Shown here: piece after piece, positions 15,847 through 49,956 of the stretch | How positions within the stretch are numbered: position 1 is the stretch's first letter | Layout of the letters: every line of letters begins with the position of its first letter | From: a virus | Taxonomy: Duplodnaviria > Caudoviricetes | DNA length: 64,000 nucleotides | Virus record (IMG/VR): IMGVR_UViG_3300047160_003205 | Coordinates: 1-64,000 of that record | Direction: 5' to 3' (one strand) | The notes under the pieces: model-generated | The model's input: the letters and a program-made list of their open reading frames with translations, nothing else | What the model was told of the DNA's origin: nothing | The model's database searches: none | Program-made: the position numbers and the translations under genes

Positions 15847-16036
15847 TTAGGGGAAGAGCCTTGGGATCAAAGCCATCCTGTCGAAGAATGATGTAGGCAA
15901 CTGTACATGTTTGATTGAAAAAAATAGGGTTGATGTCGTCCTCATCAAAGGACGCTACCCCTAGTAGGTCACCATTCATTGCCCGGGCTTCAATCTCACC
16001 GCGATTGTTCGAGTGATCGTAATTCATCTTGCCCAT
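15761..16036 (-). CDS. Hypothetical protein
   Basis: 91-aa ORF overlapping its neighbours. Confidence 0.35.
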   Translation of the reverse strand: MGKMNYDHSNNRGEIEARAMNGDLLGVASFDEDDINPIFFNQTCTVAYIILRQDGFDPKALPLNGSFHKGDGLDIDLTIKSMAMEFSVARR

Positions 16037-19000: not shown

Positions 19001-19667
19001 AGTGGGCGCGAAGCTCATCATCCGAGAGGATGTAGCGAGGGTAGGATTGCGTGGAGGCCCGAAAGCCGAGAGCGATCCTGTACTCGTCCTGATCAGTGTC
19101 CCGGGGGAAGTAGTTGTCGGATGTGGCGATGAACCGCAGCCCCGCATTCCGAACGCGACGTACAAGACCAACAGGAGAACTAGGAGCGAGACCGACAAAG
19201 TAATCAGACCTCGCATCATAAGCCTCGCCCGGGAGACTATCCAGGAGCAATCGCTCCCCAGAAATCTTGATCAGCCCCGGTAGCTTAACGGCTTCATCTG
19301 CACTTAGCGTCGGTTCCTTTCCGGGGTTCCATGTGGCTTTGTAGATGGCTCGATGAAGGTCACTTAGATCATCCTTCGCGAAAAACGACCAGTAGTCCAC
19401 GGGCGGCTTGTTGAGCCCTAGGCTCGGGACCACCCCGATTTCCACCCCATAAAGGGGGCGGATACCCGTCGTCTTACACATCTTTGTCCAGCGGACGAAG
19501 GCGAAGGTGGAAAGCCGGTCACTTATCGGCGCGACTGGTGATCCAATCTCCTGGAGTCGCGAGAGGACGGCTGGAAGATGGCCATAGGCGGTCTTGAAGC
19601 TATACCCGGTTCTGACTCGCATGGCTTTTATGCTGCCTCGGCGCAAACGCGATGAGATGGTGATCAT
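15996..19667 (-). CDS. dnaE: DNA polymerase III alpha subunit with an intein; probable start 19622
   Basis: PHP-like N-terminus, GPGRGSSGGS, LPDIDVDF catalytic motif, SQHAAGVVL, LLKIDALGL, FNK[intein]SHSIAY. Confidence 0.95.
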   Translation of the reverse strand: MITISSRLRRGSIKAMRVRTGYSFKTAYGHLPAVLSRLQEIGSPVAPISDRLSTFAFVRWTKMCKTTGIRPLYGVEIGVVPSLGLNKPPVDYWSFFAKDDLSDLHRAIYKATWNPGKEPTLSADEAVKLPGLIKISGERLLLDSLPGEAYDARSDYFVGLAPSSPVGLVRRVRNAGLRFIATSDNYFPRDTDQDEYRIALGFRASTQSYPRYILSDDELRAHFLNVGFDDDLIADAFTNRNLAIDACRAQLKKAHLLVPEKPISLRKMCEDGAITKGLDLTDPTYEERLTRELQLISDKNFDDYFYILADIVNWAKTKMVVGPGRGSSGGSLVCYCLNITEIDPIKHDLLFERFIDANRFELPDIDVDFSDINRDLVFQYAEEKYGSQRVARLGTVGMFKGRSALKAAGAALRIPIWRTDKLMDHLIERTSGDSRANNTLEDTLKETAAGQALLNEYPEVLIAAKFEGHPVNASQHAAGVVLTEDPLIDFVAMDARSKSVMCDKKDAAELNLLKIDALGLKQLSIFERTLELIGEKPTNGFLEKIPLDDQASFDVLNNGHFAGIFQFAGIALRSVANQVTFTRFEDVAAMTALVRPGPLATGGTSRWVRRKRGEEPITQVHPLLLELTKDSYGVVLYQEQVLRIVREIGQFSWEDTGAIRHAMSGILGDEFFGKYWIKFRAGATSQGIEEDKAKEIWDQICTYASWSFNKCLDGETRLRLSIAGCNTQERTIAELYEKYEEAPSRWIKQQKSKPWLVSLFPDDRGRPQKAVRIIKSGKKLCKRYTFDDGSQVVCTPEHRFLISGEWKPIKEAGLGDEFTSVEFEPIPCYKPTGEGKGHGKGWTTGVAFYKDQFIERRQDDPCEDCGKFKVRMEAHHTDFNAGKDQPEDLVWLCNSCHKKRHYAHGRTKVWENGYKQAIKKLQRIEDAGIRETYDIEMPEQHNFALENGLITHNSHSIAYGLVSYYCCWLKAHYPLEFAAATLDAEAEPANQLAILRELDKEGITYTPVDPEASTERWSIAEKDGRQVLVGPITAIKGIGPKKVLEVLASRKDGRELKPALKRMLTEARTEIDDLYPIKAQIRRLHPDTSAPPLNIVTPILPIERVQPGVEGNVVILAMARRIKWRDENDAQKLAQRDGRKLNGPTQVLNTYFCDDTDEIFCKIGRFDYERIGRKMLDKARAGKSLYAIKGTVPPDFRMIKVSAIKYLGELDGQDELRSLEQSR
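16809..17537 (-). mobile_element. Intein (243 aa) with an HNH homing endonuclease, inside DnaE
   Basis: Begins with Cys1 (FNK/CLDGETRL), block B CTPEH, ends HN/S. Internal CEDC...EAHH...DLVWLCNSCHKKRH is HNH-type. Confidence 0.92.
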
Positions 19668-20413: not shown

Positions 20414-20643
20414 TAGTTTTCGACTTCAGCACTGTATTCGTTATCCCCATCCGCCAAATCATAGGTTTCTTCTTCAGGTTCGAAGAAGTCTTCATTCCAG
20501 TCTAGGACTTTTTGCCAAAAATCGCACCATTCCCCCACCCCCAGGTAATTAGGCCGTTTGACAATGCAGTTTTCTATCTCAACATAGTCACGGTATAACT
20601 CGATCTGGGCTATCAGACTCATGTTGGTTCCCCGTCTCGTCAA
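20413..20643 (-). CDS. Hypothetical acidic protein
   Basis: 76-aa ORF in the operon. Confidence 0.45.
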   Translation of the reverse strand: MTRRGTNMSLIAQIELYRDYVEIENCIVKRPNYLGVGEWCDFWQKVLDWNEDFFEPEEETYDLADGDNEYSAEVEN

Positions 20644-20908
20644 GGGCTGCTAGGATTGCTGCATAGACGATCAGGTCTTCAATGCTATCAGGGTGGCCAC
20701 TCGACCAATTAAACATGTATCGGCCGAGTTTAGCGACCATCGTCGTTAACACATGATAACGAGTGAAGTCCTGAGGGGACCGTAGGCGAACTCCGTTGGG
20801 AAAGAAAGTGCTAAGTGCCGCCCCGACACGCTCATAGTTGGCGCCATAAAGCTGTTCGCGTTCACTAAAGAGTGCTGCGGCAGCACTTAGCTTAGTTGGT
20901 GGACTCAT
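20588..20908 (-). CDS. DUF6378 / nucleotide-modification-associated-like helical protein
   Basis: ER..LYG.NY...KLGRY....HPDSIEDLIVYAAIL pattern. Confidence 0.6.
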   Translation of the reverse strand: MSPPTKLSAAAALFSEREQLYGANYERVGAALSTFFPNGVRLRSPQDFTRYHVLTTMVAKLGRYMFNWSSGHPDSIEDLIVYAAILAALDETGNQHESDSPDRVIP

Positions 20909-21303
20909 TAGATTGGGCTATTACTTCCACCTGGACCATATGAAGTCCCGTCTGGATCAATCCACCAGTAAGGGCCATGGTCGCCATCGTTGGTCGGAAC
21001 ACGACGGACTTCATAGTGAATATTCCGAAGAGTGTCCTGACCTACGAATTGTCCATTCGGTTCAACAAAACGGACATAACCTTGCCAGTTTTCTTCATCC
21101 TCAAGGTCCAGCCCCTTTTGAAGGGCTTTAGCATTAAGGGCGAAGTGTTCACCCATAGTCTTGCTACGAGTGATCTCAATAATAAGAACTTTCAGCTCTC
21201 GATTGTAGATGATTCGATTTGGGAAGTATCGTTTGGTGAAAGCCTCAGCTTTCGGCATGTACTTCCAGGCTCCCGTAAGGGAGGTCAAATCCTTCTGTCG
21301 CAT
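20908..21303 (-). CDS. Hypothetical protein
   Basis: 131-aa ORF, translationally coupled. Confidence 0.5.
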   Translation of the reverse strand: MRQKDLTSLTGAWKYMPKAEAFTKRYFPNRIIYNRELKVLIIEITRSKTMGEHFALNAKALQKGLDLEDEENWQGYVRFVEPNGQFVGQDTLRNIHYEVRRVPTNDGDHGPYWWIDPDGTSYGPGGSNSPI

Positions 21304-21328
21304 TGCACTCCTCCAGGGTGTCAGAGCT

Positions 21329-21835
21329 TCAGATCAGTTCAACACGCTTGATCATCTTCAGATAGACGCCAAGCACCCGGAGAGTACCGTAAATGCGGTA
21401 ATGGTAGAACCGCTTTCTTTCGATCAGATATGGATTGGTATGGGCTTCAGTCCACATCTCATAAATGATAGGAAATTCAAAGTCCTCAGGGAACTCCTCG
21501 ACATGGATACCAATGTGGCTGAGGAAGGAGGGGTTCTTGCGGAACCGCTTTTGCCAATAGGGGCTTTCAGACCCAAAGGTAACAATCTCAAGCTCAATGC
21601 CTAAATCGTAGTTGAACTCTAACAATGCAGCGACGGACCTGTATTCTCTTTTCCGATGAACGGCTCGACCCATTGCTACATCGGTAATCCACTCGGCATG
21701 CTCTAAGCCGAACAGTTCCTTCAGCTTCTCCCGCGCGTCCGTATCTACTGCATACCAGGCAACCTGATCAACAATCGCTTTTCCGAAGCGACCGATCAAG
21801 GGGGTCGCCATTGCTGGGGGAATTTCAGCCGCCAT
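21329..21835 (-). CDS. VOC/glyoxalase-fold protein
   Basis: IVDQVAW...GIELEIV...FLSHIGIHV metal-ligand pattern of the VOC family. Confidence 0.6.
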   Translation of the reverse strand: MAAEIPPAMATPLIGRFGKAIVDQVAWYAVDTDAREKLKELFGLEHAEWITDVAMGRAVHRKREYRSVAALLEFNYDLGIELEIVTFGSESPYWQKRFRKNPSFLSHIGIHVEEFPEDFEFPIIYEMWTEAHTNPYLIERKRFYHYRIYGTLRVLGVYLKMIKRVELI

Positions 21836-22523
21836 ATGGAATGTCTAGTCCTGCTAGGTACTTGTGACGTTCCTTCGTACTGAGAAGGAATGCGATGAAC
21901 TCCGCCAGCACTTCAGGATCAATCTCTTCCCCCGCCTTTAGCGCGGCCAGTTGGTAGGCTTTCGCTTCTTCCTCGCTCCAGCCGCGCGTCTCCATCACCC
22001 GCTTCTCAATGAGACGGCTCATCTCCGTCCCCCTCAGCTTTCCCGGACTAATGGAGAACGCGGTGATGTTGTGAGTGACCTTAAGCTCACGCGCGAACTG
22101 GGCGGTTAGTATCTTGGCCGCGCCCTTACTCGCATTATAGGCCGCACTCGCAGTCATCGGTACGGTCGCCGCATTCGATACAATGTTAAGCACGGTTCCG
22201 CCGCGAAGGTTCTCCAACAGCGCCTTCGTGACAATGAAGATACCCTTCGCATTGGTATCCATCACCCTGTCCCAGCTATTACTGGAGAGGTCAGGAAGGT
22301 AAGCGACCTCATTGACCCCGGCGCAGTTGATGAGCCCGTCCAGTTCCAACCCTTTCAGGACCGCCGCTTCCTTAGCCACTGCCGCTTCGTCGGTGATATC
22401 CAACCCCGGCAGAGACCAATCAAAGATCGTGATCCCATTCGAGTTGAAGTGGCCAAACATGGCCTGGTAGATCGCCTTTCCCAATCCTGAGGACGCTCCG
22501 GTGATGACATAGCTCCTAGACAA
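21825..22523 (-). CDS. Short-chain dehydrogenase/reductase (classical SDR)
   Basis: TGASSGLG, NCAG, catalytic YNASK, ISPG. Confidence 0.92.
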   Translation of the reverse strand: MSRSYVITGASSGLGKAIYQAMFGHFNSNGITIFDWSLPGLDITDEAAVAKEAAVLKGLELDGLINCAGVNEVAYLPDLSSNSWDRVMDTNAKGIFIVTKALLENLRGGTVLNIVSNAATVPMTASAAYNASKGAAKILTAQFARELKVTHNITAFSISPGKLRGTEMSRLIEKRVMETRGWSEEEAKAYQLAALKAGEEIDPEVLAEFIAFLLSTKERHKYLAGLDIPYGG

Positions 22524-22956
22524 GCTCAGGCCTCCGTGCCCTAACCAGTAAGGTTGTGATGCCCTCCTCAGCCCAAGCAGCCGCTATCGCCTCATTATCC
22601 TCTAGGATCAGGCTGATACGGCGAAGATCACCGCCCATGGAAGTCCGGGCGATGTCGAGTTTCATGATTGCGGCTGGGCGATAATCGTCATTGCCGCGCA
22701 TGTATAGCTCGGCGAACTCGACCCCGTGGTGAATCAGCCAAGTAAGCGTGATCCCCCGGTACTTCTCTGGCCGCCCGGTAAGGCAGATGACATGGTGCCC
22801 CGCTCGCGTGAGCGCGTTCACGAGGGCGATCATCTCAGTGATCGGCTCGTCGTGGACGGACGCTAGGTGGAAGGCGTCCCAGCCATCCTCATCGATCAGC
22901 TTCTCCCGGTGAAAGCCTGCGGAAAGGGTGTTGTCTACATCAGCGACGATTATCAT
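22516..22956 (-). CDS. HAD phosphatase (PNK 3'-phosphatase-like)
   Basis: DVDNT motif I, LTGR motif II, LYMR...K, LEDN motif IV. Confidence 0.88.
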   Translation of the reverse strand: MIIVADVDNTLSAGFHREKLIDEDGWDAFHLASVHDEPITEMIALVNALTRAGHHVICLTGRPEKYRGITLTWLIHHGVEFAELYMRGNDDYRPAAIMKLDIARTSMGGDLRRISLILEDNEAIAAAWAEEGITTLLVRARRPELV

Positions 22957-23150
22957 TGGCCTTTGTCGGGTTCATAGAGGGTTCTTACATCAATGTCACG
23001 TGCGTATCCTGGATACTTAGAAGCGAATTGAAATCCATACAGGAAGCCATTCAGGAAGCTTTCCCGATCCAGTCCGGGTAGCTTCTCACGTGCATGATTA
23101 TATGCATGCGCGATGACGTCTATTGCTTCGTCCTTGAGGATGGTGCTCAT
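22953..23150 (-). CDS. Hypothetical protein
   Basis: 65-aa coupled ORF. Confidence 0.45.
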   Translation of the reverse strand: MSTILKDEAIDVIAHAYNHAREKLPGLDRESFLNGFLYGFQFASKYPGYARDIDVRTLYEPDKGQ

Positions 23151-23894
23151 TCATGAAGCCTTGATTAGATCAATCGCCTTAGCAATCTTTATCTTGGTCT
23201 CATGGTCGAGTGTTAAGGCGACCTCTTCTAGCATCCGTAGCCCCTTGTCGTACTTGTTCTCGAAAAATTGAGACGACCAAGGCCACACTCGCAACGTCTC
23301 CGCTTTCATCTGGCGGACAATATCTACATAAGCCCCTTGAACTCGGAGTGATTCACGCTTCTGAACCAGCTCCACAAGCGTGCGAAGGTTGTACTTAGCG
23401 ATCCCATTCGTGTGGATGCCGCCCGGCAAAAGGTCACGGGCATCCTCTAGTGGCGTACCTCCCGCAACCTCATTTGCATAACAAGCAACGGCTTCTTCCA
23501 TCGCTCTATCAAACATACCAGGAACGCCATTCCGGGTCGGTTTGGTCGCCGTCCACTTTGGTGTATCCCACGTCGCCTCGCTCATATCCGTGACGCGCTG
23601 GGACTGCATGGCGTAGGAGCCTGTGCGAGTACGGACCAGTTGAAGGCTCGTGTTTCGGCTCATTCTCTCGATGCAAAACACTAGGTCAACCATCTCCCAT
23701 GAGGAAGGGATGGTCCCCGCCATGTACTCCATCTCGTCTAATATGTTGCTCTCCGGTTCACTGAGCCGGAAAGCCCCCCAATTTCCCGGGGTTAAGCTGA
23801 AACGGGTGTTCTTCGTGAAGGCTAGGAGCCGGGCCGCATATAGCGGGTCGGGGTGCCCTTTGCCGGTGTAGTCGATGAGCGTGACTTTAGGCAT
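23151..23894 (-). CDS. thyX: ThyX-like flavin-dependent thymidylate synthase homologue (divergent)
   Basis: QLVRTRTGSYAMQSQR corresponds to the RHRx7S motif; EDARDLLP, NLRTL...R...Q. Confidence 0.75.
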   Translation of the reverse strand: MPKVTLIDYTGKGHPDPLYAARLLAFTKNTRFSLTPGNWGAFRLSEPESNILDEMEYMAGTIPSSWEMVDLVFCIERMSRNTSLQLVRTRTGSYAMQSQRVTDMSEATWDTPKWTATKPTRNGVPGMFDRAMEEAVACYANEVAGGTPLEDARDLLPGGIHTNGIAKYNLRTLVELVQKRESLRVQGAYVDIVRQMKAETLRVWPWSSQFFENKYDKGLRMLEEVALTLDHETKIKIAKAIDLIKAS

Positions 23895-24213
23895 CGATCT
23901 TCTCCGGGGTCTTCACTGGCCCTTCGGGAGCCTTTGTCCACGGCTTCTTCAGGGACTCCAGGACCTTTTGGAAGTCATCATTCTTACTCAACCGGCGGAA
24001 GCGTTCAGCATAATAGCCAATCTCCGGAATCACACCCAGGCTGATTTCTTCCAGGTGGACTCCTTTCTCCCGCCCATCCTTTACCACCTTCCTGATCGTG
24101 TACTGGGCGTTTAGGATGAGAAAGGAACACATCCACGCTGATGCTTCCTTGTTCGCTTTTGGGGTGACATCGACGCAAATGACCACGTCACCTTTTCCTA
24201 GATCGTCAGACAT
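23887..24213 (-). CDS. Hypothetical protein
   Basis: 108-aa ORF in the operon. Confidence 0.5.
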   Translation of the reverse strand: MSDDLGKGDVVICVDVTPKANKEASAWMCSFLILNAQYTIRKVVKDGREKGVHLEEISLGVIPEIGYYAERFRRLSKNDDFQKVLESLKKPWTKAPEGPVKTPEKIDA

Positions 24214-24268
24214 TACAATCCTCCGCGCCTTTCTTTATTATACCCCGGATCAACGCTGCTATAGAATG

Positions 24269-25267
24269 CTAAAGAGAGAACGTCCAGCGCTGTCTCACCA
24301 TATCATAGCGCCCGGCGTCCATCCATCCGGCAATGAGCCTGACGTCCTGTATGAGGCTATCCAGCAGCAGCCCAGGCCTCGCCGTCGCATAGCGCCCGAG
24401 CGAGAACACATTGTGCTTGTCGGTGGCCCAGTGGATGAAGAACCGCCGGGCGGTCTCTCGCACAGGCAATATCTTCTGGTAAGCTGAATACACCACTACC
24501 ACTTCGCTCAGGTCTTCGTATTGCATCCCCAACAACTCCATGGCCTCAGTCGCAAGTTGGACTGCTACGAAGTTCTCTATGAGCTGGACATCTGGCACTT
24601 CTACAATGAGCTCATTCCCAGTTACAGTGATGCGAGTGAACCGAAAGGATGGATCAGGAACCAGGAGGCTGACATACGCCTCGCAATCCTTAATCCGTCC
24701 ACGAATGTTCACGCCAGGGATATTCCTGAACTTAATATCCTCCTGATACGGATAATTGAGCGCGGCGGCGAGGGAAGGCATGGGGATCGTACTGATGTAA
24801 GGCCCCTCGCCACTGAAGTCGGCTGTGTGGCCAAATTCCAGGGCTCCACTCAACGGCTCCGCGAGCCTGGCAATGAAATCGGGTGGAGCGATATACCTAG
24901 TCTCAGTGACTAGTCCTTCAGTTATACTTCGATCAGACCGGCGAATACCAGTGTTCTTGAAACTGTAGGAGAGGCAGTCTGCGATTGGATTGCGCCATGG
25001 AAGCGTGCCCTTGATCATGAGGACTTGCTTGAACGGGATACCAGTGGCATCACCGACCGCCCCCGTCCGGAAGCGGAGGGTGGCGGAGTGATTGTTGGGG
25101 AGTTCGGACTGTGATTCGAGGATGGTCGGCTTCCGGCGCAAGAGCAGGTTCCCTGCTAAGAGCCCTGCCATCCCTGCGCCAATGATTGTTACCATTCCAC
25201 CCTCCGGAACGACGGCTGGGACATCACGCCCACTTACGGCTTGGAAGGCTCGGAGAGGACCTAACAA
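24269..25267 (-). CDS. FAD-dependent oxidoreductase (UDP-galactopyranose mutase / HemY-like fold)
   Basis: IIGAGMAG Rossmann motif, FTRIT, NVFSLGRYA near the C-terminus. Confidence 0.7.
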   Translation of the reverse strand: MLGPLRAFQAVSGRDVPAVVPEGGMVTIIGAGMAGLLAGNLLLRRKPTILESQSELPNNHSATLRFRTGAVGDATGIPFKQVLMIKGTLPWRNPIADCLSYSFKNTGIRRSDRSITEGLVTETRYIAPPDFIARLAEPLSGALEFGHTADFSGEGPYISTIPMPSLAAALNYPYQEDIKFRNIPGVNIRGRIKDCEAYVSLLVPDPSFRFTRITVTGNELIVEVPDVQLIENFVAVQLATEAMELLGMQYEDLSEVVVVYSAYQKILPVRETARRFFIHWATDKHNVFSLGRYATARPGLLLDSLIQDVRLIAGWMDAGRYDMVRQRWTFSL

Positions 25268-37323: not shown

Positions 37324-39639
37324 ATGCCAAAGTTTCAGCATCCTCAGTCAGTGCTTGATTATCTCGGGCGCATTGGTGCGGAGGTGCTGAACGCAAGACG
37401 CGCTGTAATTCGCGAAACAGGGGGCAAGTATCCTAAAGACATTGCTAAGATATACATTCATCCTGACGGAACTGTAATCGCTTCGGATAAGCAATATGCC
37501 CCTAAGGAGGCTGAAGCCGAAGTGATGACGCTAGACCTGGTTAAGGTAACATTTCCTAAGTCACTAACAGTCCTCGATATGGATGGCTTAGTGGGGGCCG
37601 GGGCCAATCGTGGTATGCTAATCCCATTTTATACGCATAAGGGGGAAGCCGACCAGCGCATAAGCATGGTCCAGGAGTTCTGGATCGATGCTAATGGGGA
37701 TAAGCAGTTTGTTTCTTGGACCTATATGAGCGATGAAGGGTGGGTAAAGGCTGAACCCGACGAAGGGCTCCCATTCTGGAAGCCTAAGCATCGGCGAGGA
37801 ATGGATTGGCAACGGATCATGATACATGAGGGGGCAAAGTCGGCACGAGCAGCGGATACGATTGTAAAAGAGCAGGTCGAGCATCCTTGGATTGATGTAT
37901 TGTCGAGGTATGTGCATTGGGGGCTGATTGGGGGAGCCAACAATCCAGGACGAACGAACTATGAGGAACTCCGGGATGAGAGACCGCGCGAAGTTGTGTA
38001 TGTGTGTGACAATGATGATCTCGGGAAAAATGTCGTAAAGGAAGTCTCACGACTCTATGGACATTCGATGAAGGAAATAACCTTTGGTGAGGACTTTCGT
38101 GATTCATGGGATATGGCAGATCCATTGCCAGAGAAGTTCTTTACAGCGACCGGGCGATATGTCGGTCCTGACTTAAAAAGGATGATGCACCCCGCGACCT
38201 ATGCTACAAGGCAATTCGCTATAGATGGAAAGAAAGTAACAACCATAAACAAAGACTTCCGAGAAGAATGGGTCTATTGCACAGAGCCTGAACTGTATAT
38301 CCATCGAGATCATACGCATCGTATTCTCGGTACAAAAGCTTTCAATAATCAGCTACGGCCCTATAGTCATGTACCTGACATCGCCTCGTTAATGAAGAAG
38401 GAGAAAAGCAACCAAACAACTCGGATACGCTACAATCCTAGTCAGAATCCAGGCATCTATAATGATGGACGGGGTGTCTATGTAAATACTTATGCTAAAC
38501 CGACAATCGAAGCAGAGGAAGGGAATGTTGATATCTGGTTGGACTACCTGAACGGATTTGTTGCTCAAGACTATGATCGCGATGAAATGTTTCGCTGGAT
38601 GGCAACGCTTATCGAACGGCCTTCAATACGAATGAAGTATGGATTGTTGCTAATAACAGAGACGCAAGGAACCGGGAAGAGCACCCTCGCCGCGAAGATA
38701 CTGACTCCATTGATTGGAGAAGATAATACATCAGAACCTACTATGTCTGATCTTATGAACCCTAAGTTTGGGAACTGGAAAGCTCATAGCCGCCTGGCTA
38801 TTACTCACGAGGTCTATAGTAGTGGTTCTTCTATTCCTTATAATACATTGAAGAGCGTAATAACTGAAGATACGGCACCAGTAGAGAAGAAGTATCAAGA
38901 TCCATATACAATTGAACTATGGACTCATGTTGTCGCTTGTTCCAATTCGCGGCACGCCTTGAAACTAAAGGATGAAGACCGTCGTTGGCTTGTTCCTGAA
39001 TTGAGGGAGGCTAAACGACCACAGTCCTTTTGGAATGCATTCTATAATTGGTTAAGCCTTGAAGGAGGGCTGGGGAAGATTAAGTGGTCATTCATTGAAT
39101 ACCTAAAAACGCAGCCTCCTGTTTCGCGAGGGGCCGAAGCGCCTCTGACAGCTGCTAAGACTTCCATAATCAACGACAATCTGTATGCTGGAGGGTTAGC
39201 TGTTTTGAATGAATTGGTAAGCTATCACAAGGCTGTTAAGCATAATGAGAATGGAGGGGGCATTGATCCTCTGTATTGGAAGTATGAACTACCATTCACG
39301 CCAAATGGACATGTTCGCGGGACGACTGAAATAGCGGACTTAGCAGCTAGGCGAGGTGCTGTGGTGTTTGATACTGATATGATCGATATGATTAAATGTC
39401 GCGTTTATGACAGAAGATTGCCAAATCACCCGATTGAAAGACTTCAGGATGTTCGGAAGATTGCTAAGTCTGTAGGGTTTAAGGCAGGAAAGAACCGTTG
39501 CTGGATACCCGAGCTTGGCTATAAGCGTCGCGGGGGGGTTGTTCTAAGTTTACAACAGGAACTTGTTGACATGACGATACCTGAGCTATATGAGAAAGGG
39601 GTCCCTATCATAGTGTTGAATATGGGACCTAACATGTGA
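37324..39639 (+). CDS. Primase-helicase (Toprim-like plus SF3/DUF5906-type helicase)
   Basis: HEGAKSA and YVCDND Toprim-like motifs; Walker A TQGTGKS; ACSN...DRRW. Confidence 0.8.
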   Translation: MPKFQHPQSVLDYLGRIGAEVLNARRAVIRETGGKYPKDIAKIYIHPDGTVIASDKQYAPKEAEAEVMTLDLVKVTFPKSLTVLDMDGLVGAGANRGMLIPFYTHKGEADQRISMVQEFWIDANGDKQFVSWTYMSDEGWVKAEPDEGLPFWKPKHRRGMDWQRIMIHEGAKSARAADTIVKEQVEHPWIDVLSRYVHWGLIGGANNPGRTNYEELRDERPREVVYVCDNDDLGKNVVKEVSRLYGHSMKEITFGEDFRDSWDMADPLPEKFFTATGRYVGPDLKRMMHPATYATRQFAIDGKKVTTINKDFREEWVYCTEPELYIHRDHTHRILGTKAFNNQLRPYSHVPDIASLMKKEKSNQTTRIRYNPSQNPGIYNDGRGVYVNTYAKPTIEAEEGNVDIWLDYLNGFVAQDYDRDEMFRWMATLIERPSIRMKYGLLLITETQGTGKSTLAAKILTPLIGEDNTSEPTMSDLMNPKFGNWKAHSRLAITHEVYSSGSSIPYNTLKSVITEDTAPVEKKYQDPYTIELWTHVVACSNSRHALKLKDEDRRWLVPELREAKRPQSFWNAFYNWLSLEGGLGKIKWSFIEYLKTQPPVSRGAEAPLTAAKTSIINDNLYAGGLAVLNELVSYHKAVKHNENGGGIDPLYWKYELPFTPNGHVRGTTEIADLAARRGAVVFDTDMIDMIKCRVYDRRLPNHPIERLQDVRKIAKSVGFKAGKNRCWIPELGYKRRGGVVLSLQQELVDMTIPELYEKGVPIIVLNMGPNM

Positions 39640-39839
39640 GTTTGAGGGTAGTTAATAATGGTTCTTAGCTCTATCTCTATTTTTACAGCTACTTTCCTAT
39701 TCTGTTCAAAAAAGAGGTAATAGAATATAGTAAAGGTAAAAGGCATAGCAAAGGTAGGGGGGGTATATAGGGGGCAGTAATAGGAAGTCGCTGTGATTTT
39801 CGAGCCCGAGCTAGGAATCATTCTTAGGAGCTGGTGGAA

Positions 39840-40013
39840 ATGCCTTCGAAATGGGAAAAAGTTGATGAGTCTGAATGCGAACAAACTGATCGATTGAAGG
39901 TAGAAGGGGGTTATCTTTACAAAACAGTTGTTTGGAGTTTGAATACCGATAATGCATTGGCAGTTACAATGGTCTTTGTACCCGCTTCCCCTGTGACACA
40001 AATTCAGGGATAA
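39840..40013 (+). CDS. Small phage protein (57 aa, below the track cut-off)
   Basis: Manually translated: MPSKWEKVDE...TDRLKVEGGYLY...AVTMVFVP. Confidence 0.5.
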   Translation: MPSKWEKVDESECEQTDRLKVEGGYLYKTVVWSLNTDNALAVTMVFVPASPVTQIQG

Positions 40014-40021
40014 TAGCTGAC

Positions 40022-40582
40022 ATGTCTGTTGGAAATGACCCTGACCGTAAGACGCACGCGGTTGCGGCTACGGGGAAGCCCCTGCGCGGGTATCGGAGTG
40101 AGAGGCCATGGCCTGATAATGTGTTTGAGCTAATTTGCCAGGAGTATGAGGGTTCGAGCAAGGGCATTGACAAAATCTGTGAATCCCATCACGACTGGCC
40201 GTCGTATATGACGATTATGCACTGGATGGTAGACGATCCAGAGCTTCAAGCGCGGATGGAGATTGCTCGCCAAATTCACGCTGACTTCCTGGTCGAAGAG
40301 GCAATGATAATTGCCGATGACAAAACCCTCGACATCATTGAGACTGAGAAGGGCTTCGTTATCAACAATGCGGCGGTGAACCGCGCCAAGCTTCAGGTTG
40401 AAACTCGCAGGTGGACAGCTGGAAAGCTTCATGCTGCGCGATTTGGCGAGAAGATGGATGTTCGGGGGGCAGGCGTTCAGCTTACCCAAGTCTTTGCTAT
40501 GCCTAGCAATGGACGGGATGATGATGGGAAAGTGATTGAGGGCGATAAGCCCAAATTGCTTCCATTCTCGAAGGATGACTAG
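40022..40582 (+). CDS. terS: Terminase small subunit
   Basis: HTH ICESHHDWPSYMTIMHW, ARQIHADFLVEE, AVNRAKLQVETRRWTAGKL...FGEK. Confidence 0.85.
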   Translation: MSVGNDPDRKTHAVAATGKPLRGYRSERPWPDNVFELICQEYEGSSKGIDKICESHHDWPSYMTIMHWMVDDPELQARMEIARQIHADFLVEEAMIIADDKTLDIIETEKGFVINNAAVNRAKLQVETRRWTAGKLHAARFGEKMDVRGAGVQLTQVFAMPSNGRDDDGKVIEGDKPKLLPFSKDD

Positions 40583-41880: not shown

Positions 41881-42276
41881 TTATTTGCGACGAACGCCGA
41901 GGCCCGGAGGCACGCGGCAGTCGGCGTCGAGAATGTTCCCGAAGAGGCGAGCAAAGCGAACAATAATCTCCGCTTTGACGTCCTCGGAGTAGTTTGCGGC
42001 GTCGAGGATAATGTTCTGTAGAAGATCGAGTCCACAGGTGCCATTGTCGTCGCGGTCGCGCGGGAGGGCATTAAGCGAGAGTCCTGCCTCGAAAGCTCTG
42101 ATAAGCTCGCGCCCGTCTGTATCGGCGGGCGGGTCCGCTGCGAAAGCGATGTTGTCTACGGGCAGGGCTAGGGTCGCGAGGGTAGCGGTGTCTATCTCGT
42201 CGCCGTAGACAGAACCTAGCCTCTGGCGAAGCTCGGGGCTGAGACGTACTTTTTTGTAAGGGTCGAAAGGCTTCAT
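41881..42276 (-). CDS. Hypothetical early protein
   Basis: AGCGGAGAA RBS. Confidence 0.65.
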   Translation of the reverse strand: MKPFDPYKKVRLSPELRQRLGSVYGDEIDTATLATLALPVDNIAFAADPPADTDGRELIRAFEAGLSLNALPRDRDDNGTCGLDLLQNIILDAANYSEDVKAEIIVRFARLFGNILDADCRVPPGLGVRRK

Positions 42277-42330
42277 TCTGTTCTCCGCTAGGGAAAAGGA
42301 AAGGCAGCCGAAGCTGCCCTAGTTGTTTGA

Positions 42331-42615
42331 TTAGAGCCCCTCGAACTCAGCGAGAAGCTCTCTGTCAGCTTTGCTTAGAGATAGGCCGCATTCGCGGCGG
42401 TCGTAGGCATTACCGAGGCGGCGCTCTTTGCTCGCCGTCCAGCCTGCTGGGCGCTCTTCGATTGTAAGGCGACGGCCCCAGTTGTCTACGTAGGTCCGGT
42501 CCCCGTTTACAGGGGGACGCCCTAGCTGTTTTTCTAGGCCCTTAAGGGCAGAAGCCTCGTCCGGGTACACATGGGAATGAACCCCGTCTTCGGCCGATAT
42601 AAGCAGTACCCACAT
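42331..42615 (-). CDS. Hypothetical early protein
   Basis: AGCGGAGAA RBS. Confidence 0.65.
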   Translation of the reverse strand: MWVLLISAEDGVHSHVYPDEASALKGLEKQLGRPPVNGDRTYVDNWGRRLTIEERPAGWTASKERRLGNAYDRRECGLSLSKADRELLAEFEGL

Positions 42616-42643
42616 TTGTTTTCTCCGCTTTGTTATGTTCGGT

Positions 42644-42955
42644 TTACTCGGAAATAACGCGCCAGCGCCGCCGCCGCTCTTCAGGGGTTAGGACTGGGCG
42701 GTCGTTCGCTTTGAACTCGTCCGCGATCCCGAGCTTCGCAGTAATGTCCGCGAAGCGAGCGAGCGCATCCTGGTGTTCGGGCGAAGCCTTAGCTCGCATT
42801 TGGTCGATAACATCCTCGTCCTCGTCTGGGTCGAGCCCCTCGATTCTGTCGAAGAAGTCTTCGAAGTTCTCGGCAGTCCAGCCTTCGAACCGACTGTCTG
42901 CCTCGTAGGCGTCGAGCAGATCGGCTAGTTCGGGAAGCATTTGTTCGGGTCGCAT
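42644..42955 (-). CDS. Hypothetical acidic early protein
   Basis: AGCGGAGAA RBS and promoter at 42983. Confidence 0.65.
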   Translation of the reverse strand: MRPEQMLPELADLLDAYEADSRFEGWTAENFEDFFDRIEGLDPDEDEDVIDQMRAKASPEHQDALARFADITAKLGIADEFKANDRPVLTPEERRRRWRVISE

Positions 42956-43034
42956 TCTGTTTTCTCCGCTAGAGACGCCCCTAGTATAGCTTCGAGACAG
43001 CTGTAGCGTCTATGTCTTTCTTTATCCCAGATAC

Positions 43035-43295
43035 ATACACAAATTTGGGCGCTTATACAGATACCCATCCAAATTTGGGGCCTGATACAAACACAAATTC
43101 TCGTATGTATACGGATGGTATAGTACACACAAATTTGGGCTGTGTACGGATTACCACACAAATTTGGATTAATGTAAAGCTTTATTAGATGTTAGCTTTA
43201 TTCATATACGTCCACAAATTTGGTGAGCTAACGTTGTCTATGCCGGAATTCAGGCACAATGGTGACGCTTAGGCCACAAATTCCACACAAATTAC
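43035..43295. repeat. AT-rich array of (CA)CAAATT(TGG) direct repeats
   Basis: About eight copies, e.g. cacaaatttgggc, ccaaatttgggg, cacaaattctc, cacaaatttggat, cacaaatttggt. Confidence 0.75.
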
Positions 43296-43916
43296 AACAA
43301 CTTAGCTGACCTGGCTAGGCAATAGTGTCCCGTGGCTAGGTTTGTTCTTTCGTCCGTATAAGGACTACGGCTCAGCTGTCCCTGGACACTCGCAGATGGG
43401 CCCAGACAATCCATCTGCTGACATACAATCCATCTGTTAAAGGACAATCCATCTGTGTGCCCCGCAGAGCCAGAGGACAGCGGCAGAGGACAGCGAACAG
43501 CTGTCTCTGAGCTCTGTCCGCCCCACCAGCGCCCACCAGGCAGGGCACAGCCGACAGCGCCCATCGGACATGCAGGCAGAGGCCATGCAGACACTAGTAC
43601 AGTGCAATGCAAGATACCCAGACCCGATCCAGCGCTCAGCCGCGACGATCGGTCGCGGTTCACAGGGGCGCGGCGGATCGTCGCGGAACGAAAGGGGAAC
43701 GAGTATAGACGCCGAGTATTCGTCGCGAATACTTAGGCGAATACTTCGAAGGGGGGCGCGGCGAAACGTCGCGGGCCTAGCTCCGCTATAGGGCTTCTCC
43801 CCTTCGCCTAGCTCGGCTATATCGGGGGTCCGGTCCGGTCGGATCGGGGCTCGGGCCGCTCGGCCCGGGCGGAACGGCTCCCGAAGGGGAGCCCTAGCTA
43901 GGTAGGAGAGACCCCT

Positions 43917-44633
43917 ATTTCCGTCTATTCGAACGTCCCCCGCTATCCCTTCTCCGGTTTCCGGGGAACCCTCTTCGCCGCCGTTCTCGCGAGCCCGGGC
44001 CGCTTCGTCCCGGTCCCGGAAGCGGTCGGGCGCGGCTTTAACGCGACGACGGCCGCGAAGAAAATTAACCTCCGCTTCGCCCGCGACGCGGCTCCCTTCG
44101 AAATCCGGACGCTCGGCCCGGCGAAGGCTCCGACCGAGGTCGGGCTCTTCGTCGTCGGGGCTATCGGCGAAGGCCGCGTCTCCCGCGATAGCCGCTCGGG
44201 CGAGCGGCGAACCGCCGCTAACGACGGCGCCGAAAACTTCGGGAAGGAACGGATCGTCCCGACGCTCGTCCGCTTCGCCGAGAAGCGCGAGGCCGTTTTC
44301 GCCGCTCGCGGCGAACGGATCGAAGCGGCTAAGGCCGTTCTCGCCGAAGAGGAGGCCGAGGCCGCTCCGGAGGCCGCGCCGCTCGCGCCCGAGGCCGCGC
44401 CCGAGGCCGCGCCCGCGCCCGAGGCCGAGGCCGAGGCCGCGCCCGAGGCCGCGCCCGAGGCCGCGCCCGACGCGCCCGACGCGCCCGAGGCCCCGACCGA
44501 GGCCGAGGCCGCGCCCGAGGCTCCCGCGCCCGAGGCCGCTCCGGAGGCCGAACCGACCGAGGCCGAGGCCGCGCCCGACGCGCCCGAGGCCCCGACCGAG
44601 GCCGAGGCCGCGCGCCCGCGTCGCCGCCGCTAA
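43917..44633 (+). CDS. ATT-start protein (238 aa) with an acidic Ala-Pro-Glu repeat tail; absent from the ORF track
   Basis: TAGGAGAGAC-CCCT-ATT start, open to TAA at 44631; GC3-rich codon usage; upstream GCTATATC -10-like box near 43817. Confidence 0.8.
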   Translation: MSVYSNVPRYPFSGFRGTLFAAVLASPGRFVPVPEAVGRGFNATTAAKKINLRFARDAAPFEIRTLGPAKAPTEVGLFVVGAIGEGRVSRDSRSGERRTAANDGAENFGKERIVPTLVRFAEKREAVFAARGERIEAAKAVLAEEEAEAAPEAAPLAPEAAPEAAPAPEAEAEAAPEAAPEAAPDAPDAPEAPTEAEAAPEAPAPEAAPEAEPTEAEAAPDAPEAPTEAEAARPRRRR

Positions 44634-44638
44634 CCCTT

Positions 44639-44664
44639 TCGGGGGAGGCTCCGGCCTCCCCCGA
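44639..44664. terminator. GC-rich hairpin between the two ATT genes
   Basis: TCGGGGGAGGC-TCCG-GCCTCCCCCGA; no U tract. Confidence 0.5.
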
Positions 44665-44696
44665 CCCCTTCCCTCGCTCCGATAGGAGAGACGACG

Positions 44697-44888
44697 ATTA
44701 AGACGCTCCCGACCCCGACCCCGGAAGCCGCCGCCTTCCGCCTTCTCGCCCGCCGCGCCGCCTTCGAAGCGGCCCGGCTCCGCGCCGCCGAAACCGGGCG
44801 CGCTACCGTCGCGGCGATTTACGCGCCGCGCGGGTTTCGCTCCCTCGGCGAAGGCGGGTTCCGCGCCTCGCCGGATTACTTCGACTAG
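44697..44888 (+). CDS. ATT-start protein (63 aa); absent from the ORF track
   Basis: TAGGAGAGAC-GACG-ATT start, open to TAG at 44886; (M)KTLPTPTPEAAAFRLLARR...SPDYFD. Confidence 0.75.
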   Translation: MKTLPTPTPEAAAFRLLARRAAFEAARLRAAETGRATVAAIYAPRGFRSLGEGGFRASPDYFD

Positions 44889-44892
44889 CCGC

Positions 44893-44966
44893 GCGCTATA
44901 CTTCGCGGGCCGGGCGAATACTTCGCTACGGCCCGCGAATACTTCGCCGACCGCCGCGAATACTTC
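44893..44966 (+). repeat. GCGAATACTTC direct repeats at 21-bp spacing
   Basis: Copies at 44914, 44935 and 44956, a variant near 44893; also at 43725 and 43737, with an inverted copy at 43714. Confidence 0.8.
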
Positions 44967-45100
44967 ACACACACACCCGGGGGCACGCTTCGCTCCACCA
45001 CACTGCTTTCCAATGTCGTGAACCTTTGCTGTACACACGGCGCCATAGAGCCACACAGTCCCGGAGGATGTAACCCACATTGATGCGGAATTGTACAACT

Positions 45101-45447
45101 TAACCATACCACACCCAACCTCACCCGACCAAGGAGGACCGAACCCGACCAAACCCGACCAAACCCCACCTGACCACGTTGTGCCACACCAATCCAAACC
45201 TTGCCTCACCGTCCCTTACCAGCAGCAGACCAGACCGTACCTTGCCACAGCAGGGATTCACCGCACCTTACCACACCGAACCTCACAATAGCATACCTGA
45301 CCGTACCCGAACAGACCAGACCCCGCCACACCTAATCTTATCATACCACACCTCGCCCAATCAGACCGTGCCGTACCATACCCGATTTTACCAAACCTGA
45401 CCAGACCACGCCGCATCGGACCAAGCCCGACCACAGGATACCCTGCC
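45101..45447 (-). ncRNA. GGY-NN pentamer array (VIPR-type guide RNA candidate)
   Basis: 69 pentamer slots, 53 with exact GGY plus a variable dinucleotide, two 1-nt register slips; begins at the stop codon of the RAMP-like gene. Confidence 0.75.
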
Positions 45448-46113
45448 TTAAGGTTGCGATAGCTCCCACTTAACCACTACGAAGCGTCCGAAGGTTGGCC
45501 GCATGTCCCCAAGCCCGACCAAGCGCCCCGCGTCGTCAATCACGCGCCGAAGAAACACTGGATCGATGTAATCTGACAGTTGCACCATGAACTGGAAGTC
45601 TGCTCGCCAGCCAGCCTTGATAGCTGGCCGTGTTCGGGTAACGGCACCCCGTTGCACCATTGCCCGTCGCCGGTCCTCGTAGTCCCACTTCGTGATTCCC
45701 AGCGAGGAGAGGTCATTCAAGCTGATTATGCCAGCACGGAACAGGTCCATTGCCGACTTTCTGGGCGACCTGGGGTCCTGTTGGAACTTGCTGGCATTGA
45801 TTATGGAACCTCGCAGGTACTCCCCAGGAATAGAGATTTCCATATCAGCATTGCGATAGACATAGGACTCCAAATTGTCAACCTTCTTGGCCTTCGACCC
45901 TTTTGGGGCCTTGGCCTTTGCCTCGACCTCATCCGTATTGTAGCGGTGAAACAACATTGGAGATGACCCCTCTAAGGTCATATCAACAATGTAGGGGACG
46001 CTCGCCTGAATAACGGGTTCGCCCCCATTGGAGGCTTGCTCCTCGGCTAGGTTAAGCAATTTGTCTCGGTTCAACATCGCCCCCTTCATTGGTTGTTGGT
46101 CCTTCCTCCCCAA
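45448..46113 (-). CDS. RAMP/Cas7-like protein (Vipr candidate)
   Basis: LEGSSPMLFH, IPGEYLRGSI, RTRP...W...F and a C-terminal Gly-rich loop DAGRLVGLGDMRPTFGRF. Confidence 0.7.
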   Translation of the reverse strand: MGRKDQQPMKGAMLNRDKLLNLAEEQASNGGEPVIQASVPYIVDMTLEGSSPMLFHRYNTDEVEAKAKAPKGSKAKKVDNLESYVYRNADMEISIPGEYLRGSIINASKFQQDPRSPRKSAMDLFRAGIISLNDLSSLGITKWDYEDRRRAMVQRGAVTRTRPAIKAGWRADFQFMVQLSDYIDPVFLRRVIDDAGRLVGLGDMRPTFGRFVVVKWELSQP

Positions 46114-48009: not shown

Positions 48010-48241
48010 GGATCCAGCTATCAGCGACCATCCGCATGAAAAAGCTTATGGAGAGACGTAGCTTGTGGGCGGCGTCCCGCACAGCGACAAACTCTCCGGG
48101 TGGGAAGTAGACACTAACTGCCACTGTCCTATCCTTCCCGGCCTCCAGTTTTCGCTGGAGTGCCTCTTGTCCAAGACTCCGCCGATTGTAGGGACGTTTC
48201 ATCTCCGTTACGCTCCGTCCCCCTAGTCTAGTTGAAAACAA
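47993..48241 (-). CDS. Ribbon-helix-helix-like small regulator
   Basis: VSVYFPPGEFVAVRDAAHKLRLSISFFMR. Confidence 0.5.
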   Translation of the reverse strand: MFSTRLGGRSVTEMKRPYNRRSLGQEALQRKLEAGKDRTVAVSVYFPPGEFVAVRDAAHKLRLSISFFMRMVADSWIRDHAK

Positions 48242-49956
48242 AAAGAAAGTCGATGACCCGAGGAATTGTCGCGTGGCCTACATGGGGAAACACGAACTTT
48301 GTTGGCCAGTACCAGGCCGAGGAGTGGCCTGAGCCCCCGGAAGACTGGGAGGCTACCCCGCAGCACGACCCGGAAGCTTTCAATGGCAGTGACCTTCCTC
48401 CCGAGAGCGACGCAATTCTGGCGGATGACACGGAGGAGGTGTACCATCCCGGTCTTCACTCCTACGAGGGCGACAAGGGCTACGAGGACCCCGCTGAACT
48501 GACGGTCCTGAAGAGACGGCACGGGCCACTGAATGTGACGGCTCCTCAGCCGGGTCCCCAGATGAGGTTCCTGACGACGGCGGCTGACATCGCCATCTAT
48601 GGCGGGGCGGCGGGCGGCGGGAAGACATGGGCGCTGTTGTTCGAGGCGTCCCGGCACATTAAGAACCCCTACTATGGCGCCGTCATCTTCCGCCGTACCA
48701 GTGTGCAAGTCCGGAATGAGGGTGGCCTGTGGGATGAATCTCTCCGCATGTACCCCGGCCTGGGCGGGGCTCCCCGCGAGCATGACCTTTGGTGGAAGTT
48801 CCCGTCCGGGTCCAATATCTCCTTCGCCCACCTGGAGCACGATAAGAATGCTCACGACTATCAGGGGGCACAGATCCCACTGATCGCCTTCGATGAGCTG
48901 ACACACTTCACGGAAGCCCAGTTCTGGTACATGGTTAGCCGGAACCGCTCCACATGTGGGGTGAAACCCTACATCCGTGCTACGTGCAACCCTGACGTTG
49001 ACAGCTGGGTGGCAAAGTTTATTTCCTGGTGGATAAACCAGGACACTGGCTATGCTTACCCGGAGCGTGCGGGAAAGCTTCGGTACTTTGTCCGCATTGG
49101 TGATAAGCTCCACTGGGCATCTGACCCTAAAGCTCTGTCCCGCTTCCGCAATCCAGTAGACGGGAAGCCCATCAAGCCCAAGTCTGCCACCTTCATCCCG
49201 TCTAAGCTCACCGACAACAAGGTCCTGACCGAGTCCGACCCGGGGTATATGGCGAACCTGTTGGCGCTCCCTCTCGTGGAGAGGGAGCGGTTGCTGAATG
49301 GTAACTGGAAGATACGGTGGACGGGTCAACAATTCTTCAATGTCCAGAACCTACTCGTGAACGGGAGGCCGGTGGCGAACCCCACCAATACGGACAGTGT
49401 CTTCGCTGTACTCGACACAGCAAGTAAGACTGGTCATCAACACGATGGCACGGCTGTCGTCTGGGTTGCGAAGAACAAGTACACTGGATATCCGCTGACG
49501 ATACTGGATTGGGAGACGCTGCAGATCAGCGGGAACCTGTTGGAGAAGTGGTTGCCGTCCGTTTTTATACATGGTGAGAGACTGGCTCGTCGTTACGGCG
49601 CACGCGAAGGGTTCGTGGGTGCTTGGATTGAGGACAAGCAATCCGGAACCATTCTCCTTCAACAGGCACGTCGGCGGAACTTCAACGTCTTCCCGATTGA
49701 ATCCAAGCTGACCCTCTTGGGCAAGGACGAACGCGCACTGAGTGTGAGTGGGTATGTTGGAACGGGGAAGGTCAAGGTAGCTGAAACCGCCTTCAATAAG
49801 ACCCTCACCTATAAGGACATAACGCGGAATCATTTTCTCTCCCAGGTTGAAAGTTTCTCTATTGCCGACCCGGACAATAAGTCCCGGGCCGATGATTTGC
49901 TCGATTGCTTCTGCTACGCTGTCGCTATCGGCCTCGGCGATTGGGAAGGGTTCTGA
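48232..49956 (+). CDS. terL: Terminase large subunit
   Basis: Walker A GGAAGGGKT, Walker B IAFDELTHF, coupling RATCNP, RuvC-like LDTAS...DDLLD. Confidence 0.93.
   Translation: MKTKRKSMTRGIVAWPTWGNTNFVGQYQAEEWPEPPEDWEATPQHDPEAFNGSDLPPESDAILADDTEEVYHPGLHSYEGDKGYEDPAELTVLKRRHGPLNVTAPQPGPQMRFLTTAADIAIYGGAAGGGKTWALLFEASRHIKNPYYGAVIFRRTSVQVRNEGGLWDESLRMYPGLGGAPREHDLWWKFPSGSNISFAHLEHDKNAHDYQGAQIPLIAFDELTHFTEAQFWYMVSRNRSTCGVKPYIRATCNPDVDSWVAKFISWWINQDTGYAYPERAGKLRYFVRIGDKLHWASDPKALSRFRNPVDGKPIKPKSATFIPSKLTDNKVLTESDPGYMANLLALPLVERERLLNGNWKIRWTGQQFFNVQNLLVNGRPVANPTNTDSVFAVLDTASKTGHQHDGTAVVWVAKNKYTGYPLTILDWETLQISGNLLEKWLPSVFIHGERLARRYGAREGFVGAWIEDKQSGTILLQQARRRNFNVFPIESKLTLLGKDERALSVSGYVGTGKVKVAETAFNKTLTYKDITRNHFLSQVESFSIADPDNKSRADDLLDCFCYAVAIGLGDWEGF

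Follow-up and report, generated by a model that had tools for sequence, protein, structure and literature searches.

The CA/TG-free island and its two reading frames

The window analysed here spans positions 1–64,000 of a soil phage contig in IMG/VR (record IMGVR_UViG_3300047160_003205) that is 78,844 bp long. Between the genes of the small and large terminase subunits (terS and terL) lies a block, positions 43664–44965, in which the dinucleotides CA and TG do not occur. This block, hereafter the island, holds two reading frames, ORF1 and ORF2, each beginning with ATT behind the same ribosome-binding site. An initial annotation made from the sequence had proposed them as two hidden genes whose canonical start codons were given up to keep the island free of TG. 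The features on which this proposal depends are the following.

43917–44633, plus strand: ORF1, 238 amino acids followed by TAA, start ATT; the frame opens at 43902, right after a TAG
43903–43912, plus strand: ribosome-binding site TAGGAGAGAC of ORF1, with GGAG at 43905–43908, 8 nt before the ATT
44697–44888, plus strand: ORF2, 63 codons followed by TAG, start ATT, in the same frame as ORF1
44683–44692, plus strand: ribosome-binding site TAGGAGAGAC of ORF2, its GGAG likewise 8 nt before the ATT
43437–45209, minus strand: antisense open frame of 590 codons, a shadow ORF whose GTG start lies outside the island, in a repeat array

CA dinucleotides at 43663 and 44966 bound the gap of 1303 bp, and the second-longest gap between CA/TG dinucleotides is 59 bp, a value that holds for the window as well as for all 78,844 bp of the genome. 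About 158 CA/TG would be expected in the island from the genome density and ~129 from its own base composition, and none is observed. Outside the island these dinucleotides are ordinary, the genome ratio of observed to expected counts (o/e) being 0.96–0.99. The island has a GC content of 73% compared with 56% for the genome; CpG (o/e 1.45), TA, AA/TT and GA/TC are enriched and GT/AC are reduced. Both flanks are among the regions of the genome richest in CA/TG, with 29–31 per 150 bp compared with a mean of 18.3 (standard deviation 4.2, maximum 31). No DNA relatives of the island or its neighbourhood were found among 50,697 deposited phage records, an Rfam scan over 43000–46000 returned nothing relevant, and a literature search found no publication on CA/TG-free phage islands. 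Conversion of CA to TA resembling repeat-induced point mutation was considered as the source of the composition and rejected, the TA excess amounting to ~13 sites against ~130 missing CA/TG.

The 10-mer TAGGAGAGAC occurs exactly twice in the 78.8-kb genome, at 43903 and 44683, each time followed by 4 nt and then ATT, just as the initial annotation had described for both ORFs. In GGAGA core and spacing it matches the ribosome-binding sites of other early genes of this phage that start with ATG, for example AGCGGAGAA-N5-6-ATG. The island being TG-free, no ATG, GTG or TTG is possible between the upstream TAG, after which the frame opens at 43902, and a conserved PFSGFR motif that begins at codon 11 of ORF1. 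Because CA and TG are absent, so are internal Met, Trp, Cys, His and Gln, and none of the five residues was found in either ORF, in agreement with the same annotation.

The absence of TGA, combined with 73% GC, allows long open frames to arise freely, for example a plus-strand frame of 259 codons at 43906–44682, and several frames are open over long distances. The length of an ORF in the island is thus no evidence for a gene. The antisense frame of 590 codons was rejected as a real gene: its translation is low-complexity GLGRG text that mirrors the ORF1 tail, and the protein homology lies on the plus strand. A codon model trained on island genes scored the ORF2 frame at +10.3 (0.16 per codon), the sole positive value of the six frames, and ORF1 at 0.14 per codon. 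Minus-strand frames were negative over the stretches tested, and the left non-coding part of the island scored at or below zero in all frames. In an exact look-up against a collection of 15 billion proteins, ORF1, ORF2 and the antisense ORF were all absent.

Relatives of ORF1 and the graded loss of CA and TG

An exhaustive HMMER search with ORF1 residues 1–141 against 1.84 billion representative proteins identified three relatives, P0003 (E 1.2e-39, 60% identity), P0004 (E 1.5e-27) and P0005 (E 9.5e-20), and a profile search added P0008 and P0009. A sixth relative was spotted by eye in contig L008, where a minus-strand ORF (L008:1643–2148) encodes ISTFSKLPANPFSGYR... and starts with ATC 5 nt after TAGGAGG. 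It lies in an island of its own, L008:1507–2282, 777 bp with zero CA/TG, over which no gene had been called. The six relatives come from five other soil-metagenome phage contigs. The initial annotation had named beforehand a frame that is not conserved in homologues as the result that would speak against its genes; all six align with ORF1 from residue 1 without a frameshift. The seven members, ordered by their remaining CA/TG, are as follows.

P0003, at L008:3208–3900, other strand, with its own GGCTATAAT-type promoter: 54 CA/TG in the gene, which has Met, Trp, His and Gln; start ATG
P0005, in L010: 23 CA/TG in the gene, partly purged; start ATG
P0009, in L012/L013: the ATG and a TG directly before it (cTGatg) in 1033 bp; start ATG
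P0004, in L009: one TG in 827 bp, which is the ATG itself; start ATG
P0008, in L011: one TG in 915 bp, which is the ATG itself; start ATG
Island copy, in L008: no CA/TG in 777 bp; start ATC
ORF1, in the window: no CA/TG in 1303 bp; start ATT

Five islands pooled retain four CA/TG in 4,847 bp, every one of them in or touching a start codon. The idea that the canonical start was sacrificed to keep the island TG-free is borne out by this series, in that the only TG of the sister islands sits in or against the ATG, and the islands with no TG at all start with ATT or ATC. The first alignment column of the seven members reads I/I/M/M/M/M/M, with Met in P0003, P0004, P0005, P0008 and P0009 where ORF1 has Ile. 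The N-terminus has the same length as that of ORF1 in four of the five ATG relatives (for example MTTLSNIPSFPFSGFR vs ISVYSNVPRYPFSGFR), and the aligned start contexts are CCT-ATG, CCT-ATT and CCT-ATC, all behind (T)AGGAG.

Two longer contigs, L008 and L010, encode an Sf6-type terminase and L008 also a DUF5906 primase, which identifies both as relatives of this phage. From the primase to the island, L008 and the window are collinear, and the island copy of L008, situated between the TerS side and a (CA)n flank, is the positional counterpart of ORF1. Neither an island (longest gap 82 bp) nor a family member was found in the TerL-related loci L002–L007 or in three complete, more distant relatives (G001, G004 and G005), and searches of IMG/VR and JGI metagenome contigs with an ORF1/family-alignment pattern and tblastn returned no relatives. 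Foreign origin as the sole source of the island composition was rejected, the unpurged paralogue P0003 having a similar GC content (69%).

A second gene is present in the island of L012 (L012:828–1112). It has 94 codons and starts with ATT behind TAGGAGG, and the first gene there keeps its ATG. No relatives of this second gene were found, and it has no similarity to ORF2.

Coding constraint and history of the start codons

The five ATG members share 41 invariant alignment columns, of which 36 are conserved in ORF1 and 35 in the L008 island copy (85–88%); when each ATG member was left out in turn, retention ranged from 73 to 100%. The invariant residues lost from ORF1 or the L008 island copy are conservatively replaced. 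The ratio of nonsynonymous to synonymous substitutions (dN/dS, NG86 method) is 0.38 between ORF1 and the L008 island copy and 0.31–0.71 among the ATG pairs, values that are only rough because dS is close to saturation and the purge itself constrains it. Rough as they are, the estimates consistently indicate purifying selection on the ORF1-family protein. The Shine-Dalgarno sequence and its spacing are kept in both lineages, ORF1 and the L008 island copy, which differ at ~45% of residues.

In a maximum-likelihood tree ORF1 is the sister of the unpurged P0003 (support 95/94) and the ATC copy falls outside both. Two histories would fit this topology. ATG may have been lost twice, or it may have been lost once in the distant past, with the copy that left the island regaining ATG and an ordinary composition. 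Under either history the CA/TG constraint belongs to the genomic location and not to the protein family; in the paralogue outside the island, ATG, Met, Trp, His and Gln were either regained or never lost. In four further soil runs, Logan contigs match the window at 100% identity and so show no natural variation, which argues against the ATT being an assembly error for ATG.

We regard it as quite probable, from these sequence comparisons, that ORF1 is a genuine conserved gene read from the AUU at 43917, that ORF2 is probably a second gene read from the AUU at 44697, and that the island is under very strong selection against CA and TG. The proposal of two hidden genes is thus supported to different degrees, strongly for ORF1, which has conserved relatives, and moderately for ORF2, which has none. 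Taken by itself, ORF2 is a reasonably likely gene, given the shared ribosome-binding site with its spacing and the codon-usage score. Several points weigh against this reading. The family is small, with eight genes that all come from metagenome assemblies, and the dN/dS estimates have the limits given above. For ORF2, protein searches and pattern and tblastn searches of IMG/VR and JGI metagenome contigs returned no relatives, and all three plus-strand frames are open across its span. In E. coli, both AUU and AUC initiate weakly. Pfam and PHROGs scans of ~70 ORFs detected no methyltransferase, DpdA, Tet/JBP dioxygenase, ParB or 5-hydroxymethyldeoxyuridine (5-hmdU) kinase as a candidate for the agent of the purge, several large ORFs having no family.

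It was also considered that ORF1 and ORF2 are dead, their ATG lost, and that the block works only as DNA through binding, packaging or replication signals. Such a relic would agree with the several long open frames in a composition where stops are rare and with the poor AUU start; no RNA run is listed as holding the stretch. However, the dN/dS of 0.38, invariant residues kept as well as in the ATG members, the Shine-Dalgarno sequence and spacing retained across the two diverged lineages, and a codon-usage score that is positive in the annotated frames only make it very improbable.

Organization of the island

The remaining features of the island and its flanks are given in their order along the window.

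43391–43640: left flank, CA/TG-rich, with three copies of GACAATCCATCTG at 19-bp spacing (43405–43455)
43640–43686, plus strand: left-border hairpin with the last CA (43663) in its loop; -37.3 kcal/mol, z -6.3, none of 200 shuffles as stable; also detected as an inverted repeat
43725–43747, plus strand: GCGAATACTT twice at a distance of 12 bp, with an inverted copy (GAGTATTCG) ahead of the pair at 43714; possible sites of protein binding
43777–43824, plus strand: two tandem promoter-like boxes, CTAGCTC-(C/G)GCTATA, at 43777 and 43808
43876–43893, plus strand: leader hairpin GGCTCCC-GAAG-GGGAGCC, 10 nt 5' of the ORF1 ribosome-binding site
44641–44662, plus strand: GC-rich hairpin between ORF1 and ORF2, 11-bp stem, without a T-run; -34 kcal/mol, z -2.6
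44914–44966, plus strand: three copies of GCGAATACTTC 21 bp apart, with a TATACTTCG copy at 44897; foldable as a hairpin, -38 kcal/mol, z -3.5; the island stops at the last copy
44966–45300: right flank, CA/TG-rich like the left flank, with (CA)5, two TGTACA and then the start of a 5-nt-period array

The promoter-like boxes, the leader hairpin, the two cistrons and the hairpins would form one compact unit that fills the 1.3-kb block. The CTAGCTC-(C/G)GCTATA boxes are putative promoters. A matching box behind a T/C-rich stretch precedes the homologues in L009, L011 and L012, and the boxes resemble the GGCTATACT boxes elsewhere in the phage genome. A scan for sigma-70 promoters and terminators inside the island found no consensus promoter and no T-run terminator, an outcome to be expected, since TTGACA itself holds both TG and CA. 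Each of the two TAGGAGAGAC sites is preceded by a hairpin.

Copies containing AATACTT number 11 in the genome, and the four that read GAATACTTC are all inside the island. The GCGAATACTT(C) repeats flank the coding part, two copies lying to its left and three to its right. The GACAATCCATCTG word of the left flank recurs as CAGATGGATTGT on the matching side of the L008 island (L008:2630–2760), and the GACAATCCATCTG/CAGATGGATTGT repeats are read here as a conserved putative protein-binding array. At the right edge of the island, the GCGAATACTTC boxes, three in number, are oriented into the 5-nt-period array. Tracts of (TG)n or (CA)n together with TGTACA motifs adjoin the islands in the window, in L008 and in L011. 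In L009 the first CA is located directly 3' of a terminator T-run, and in L011 ~16 nt after an intrinsic terminator.

Predicted structure of the ORF1 product

An AlphaFold2 model of ORF1 residues 1–150, computed with a seven-sequence alignment, has a pLDDT of 76.5 and a pTM of 0.70. In the model a helix-strand-helix-hairpin domain leads into a long helix. Structural alignment with VIA-align matched almost only winged-helix domains (the ScpB N-terminal domain and the OmpR/PhoB effector domains) with Z scores of 5–6 and root mean square deviations of 2.6–3.5 Å over 64–79 residues, Z values so low that they are common for unrelated small domains. Foldseek found no match in the PDB or BFVD at E<=0.001, and Pfam and PHROGs assigned no family to ORF1. 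The model therefore offers only a lead, namely that residues 1–85 may adopt a winged-helix-like domain. The alignment with the ScpB, OmpR and PhoB domains is at the level of fold, with no sequence similarity, and the tail of ORF1 has no equivalent in those domains. The C-terminal 87 residues of ORF1 are rich in Ala, Glu and Pro, 25 of them are acidic, and the chain ends in RRRR, as it does in the relatives.

Genomic setting

The phage is marked by its soil origin, a DnaE polymerase, a D5-type primase and an Sf6-type TerS. The contig carries the IMG/VR class for terminal repeats; the actual repeat is only a 97-bp overlap of the ends and therefore an assembly feature. The neighbours of the island are as follows.

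37324–39639, plus strand: D5/DUF5906 primase-helicase
40022–40582, plus strand: Sf6-type small terminase
41881–43161, minus strand: small early genes, left of the island
45101–45447: 5-nt-period repeat array, ACC-NN on the plus strand, 347 bp, directly right of the island
45448–46113, minus strand: gene of 221 amino acids adjoining the array, sole match phrog_4652 (function unknown)
Between the array and the large terminase, minus strand: further genes
48232–49956, plus strand: large terminase

Within the DnaE-type polymerase (1223 amino acids, 15996–19667, minus strand) lies an intein that includes an HNH endonuclease domain (residues ~729–953; Pfam Intein_splicing and HNH). A cluster on the minus strand at 20588–25267, beside DnaQ and DnaE, encodes a ThyX-like protein, an HAD/PNKP-type phosphatase, an SDR, a protein with a weak DUF6378 match below the Pfam cut-off and several ORFs without a family. 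The cluster could serve in nucleotide or DNA modification, and no sequence-specific writer was recognised there. The 2-kb segment of lowest GC is 38001–40000, which covers the 3' part of the primase-helicase gene and DNA beyond it (44% GC vs 56% for the genome). No tRNA genes were found in the genome, so that no altered initiator tRNA is encoded.

Proposed near-cognate initiation

Initiation in E. coli at AUU, AUC, AUA or CUG reaches 1–2% of the rate at AUG, and infC and pcnB start with AUU (bioRxiv 10.1101/063800). The AUU and AUC of the islands would likewise be read by the initiator tRNA at a low rate, ~1–2% of AUG if E. coli is a guide. The purge would have reached its limit here, the last TG, that of the ATG, being swapped for ATT or ATC behind a strong Shine-Dalgarno sequence that is retained. 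The resemblance to infC and pcnB lies in an AUU behind a Shine-Dalgarno sequence, the lack of a canonical start and the low intrinsic efficiency to be expected. In infC, however, the AUU is an autoregulatory sensor of initiation factor 3 (IF3), whereas the AUU and AUC of the phages would be the end point of a local TG purge. The phage genes differ further from infC and pcnB in that sister genes keep ATG and in that two cistrons share the same ribosome-binding site. By analogy with infC, the ATT-started ORFs may also be gated translationally by IF3. What appears to be new is that a near-cognate start completes the local purge of a dinucleotide, as the series of relatives documents, in at least two gene families of the islands.

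What may remove CA and TG

As the cause of the purge, our best guess is a DNA modification or a nuclease directed at TG, of the phage or of its host, which would read duplex DNA and respond to a single site. CA and TG are reverse complements of one another and ~130 bp upstream of the promoter-like boxes are purged as well, which makes a reader of duplex DNA likelier than an RNase. The starts became ATT or ATC rather than ACG, Trp and other residues gave way to functional alternatives, and TA, AA and TT are enriched; this pattern indicates selection and makes a pure TG-to-CG bias unlikely. Phage genomes avoid restriction sites, and mRNAs without ACA resist MazF. In these cases too, selection strips a short word from functional sequence and reshapes codon choice. 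Here, however, the word has only 2 bp and its removal is total and local, at the cost of five amino acids and the canonical starts. We know of no reader of the CA/TG 2-bp word.

A purge acting on the mRNA, which would have to lack CA and UG to escape endoribonucleases such as toxin-antitoxin or HEPN RNases, is suggested by the coincidence of the purged block with the end of the transcript in L009 and L011, where CA reappears right after, or ~16 nt after, the terminator. This explanation is nevertheless improbable, since the reverse complementarity of CA and UG is the signature of a constraint on the duplex, the stretch upstream of the promoter-like boxes (43664–43795) is purged too, and no RNase with such a double specificity comes to mind. 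A product of mutation or repair, for example T:G-to-C:G mismatch repair in a frequently recombining repeat, would account for the CpG o/e of 1.45, the elevated GC and a possible twofold sequencing depth. It would not account for starts that became ATT or ATC instead of ACG, for the enrichment of TA, AA/TT and GA/TC, for conserved residues replaced by functional alternatives that are not TG-to-CG products, or for borders that are sharp and coincide with terminators in the relatives, and P0003 already has 69% GC without a purge. We therefore give it hardly any weight.

Of the agents acting on duplex DNA, a host nuclease, silencer or loading site that recognises CA/TG is a tentative possibility, the cassette having to work before the phage neutralises that agent. 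The island is self-contained, with its own promoter-like boxes, and from its composition the acidic tail of ORF1 appears similar to the polyanionic tails of DNA mimics. A weak hint comes from Logan contigs of the phage, in which the island (43000–45200) has ~2x the flanking depth in three of four runs and ~4x in one (X2, X3, X5 and X9). This excess could reflect a terminal repeat, a cassette common to co-occurring phages or coverage bias, and a depth peak at 44276–44509 stems from Ala/Pro/Glu repeats of other organisms. However, no defence system is known to read a 2-bp step, the Sf6-type TerS suggests headful packaging and hence no fixed first-entering end, and the physical ends cannot be mapped from contigs, the 97-bp end overlap being an assembly feature. 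It is rather unlikely, if still worth weighing, that the purge instead shields the unit from a TG-directed thymine modification made by the phage itself, a single modified T in the ATG being harmful; the cassette would then remain chemically plain while the rest of the chromosome is marked. In phages M6, ViI and phiW-14, restriction-resistance mapping indicates that hypermodified thymidine is concentrated at TG and TC (PMC6449724), and a ParB-dependent phage T-dioxygenase prefers NTG (PMC13229309). These systems likewise read TG on duplex phage DNA and would give a reason for avoiding it on both strands, and the ThyX-like/HAD-PNKP/SDR cluster with its weak DUF6378 match beside DnaQ and DnaE points the same way. 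Against this, the complete 78.8-kb genome yielded no 5-hmdU kinase, aGPT-Pplase/AADT, Tet/JBP or ParB (a divergent writer is possible), and six-frame genome searches with PF12851 and PF02195 gave no match. The published TC preference also differs from the islands, where TC is not avoided: TC/GA are enriched in the pooled islands (o/e 1.34), so that a writer of TG plus TC would still mark them. Moreover, there is no CA/TG purge in other early genes that share these promoters and ribosome-binding sites.

It is also conceivable, though improbable, that the ORF1-family protein, with its winged-helix-like domain and DNA-like acidic tail, is itself the CA/TG reader, coating or silencing DNA through the flexible and very common CA/TG step, with its own unit kept free of sites as self-immunity by motif avoidance. 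The CA/TG-dense flanks and a purge that moves with the position of the gene in every related contig are pointers in this direction. If this were true, the loss of ATG would mean that one site suffices to nucleate binding, and the genes would represent a new class that is obligatorily initiated with AUU or AUC and invisible to gene callers.

Implications

The graded series, which descends from an unpurged gene by way of partly purged and ATG-only stages to complete absence, offers a natural experiment for finding the agent that acts on CA/TG. The swap of ATG for ATT or ATC gauges the strength of the selection, in that one TG would outweigh a roughly 50- to 100-fold difference in translation initiation in some lineages. 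A cost of this size speaks for an agent that is sensitive to single sites and against mutational bias of a simple kind. It is the comparison of relatives, and not ORF length, that points to real phage genes without any canonical start codon. Standard callers miss such genes, as illustrated by the L008 island, over which nothing was called, and by the absence of ORF1 from the 15-billion-protein collection. Gaps in phage metagenomes that are regarded as non-coding may thus hide more genes that start with ATT or ATC.

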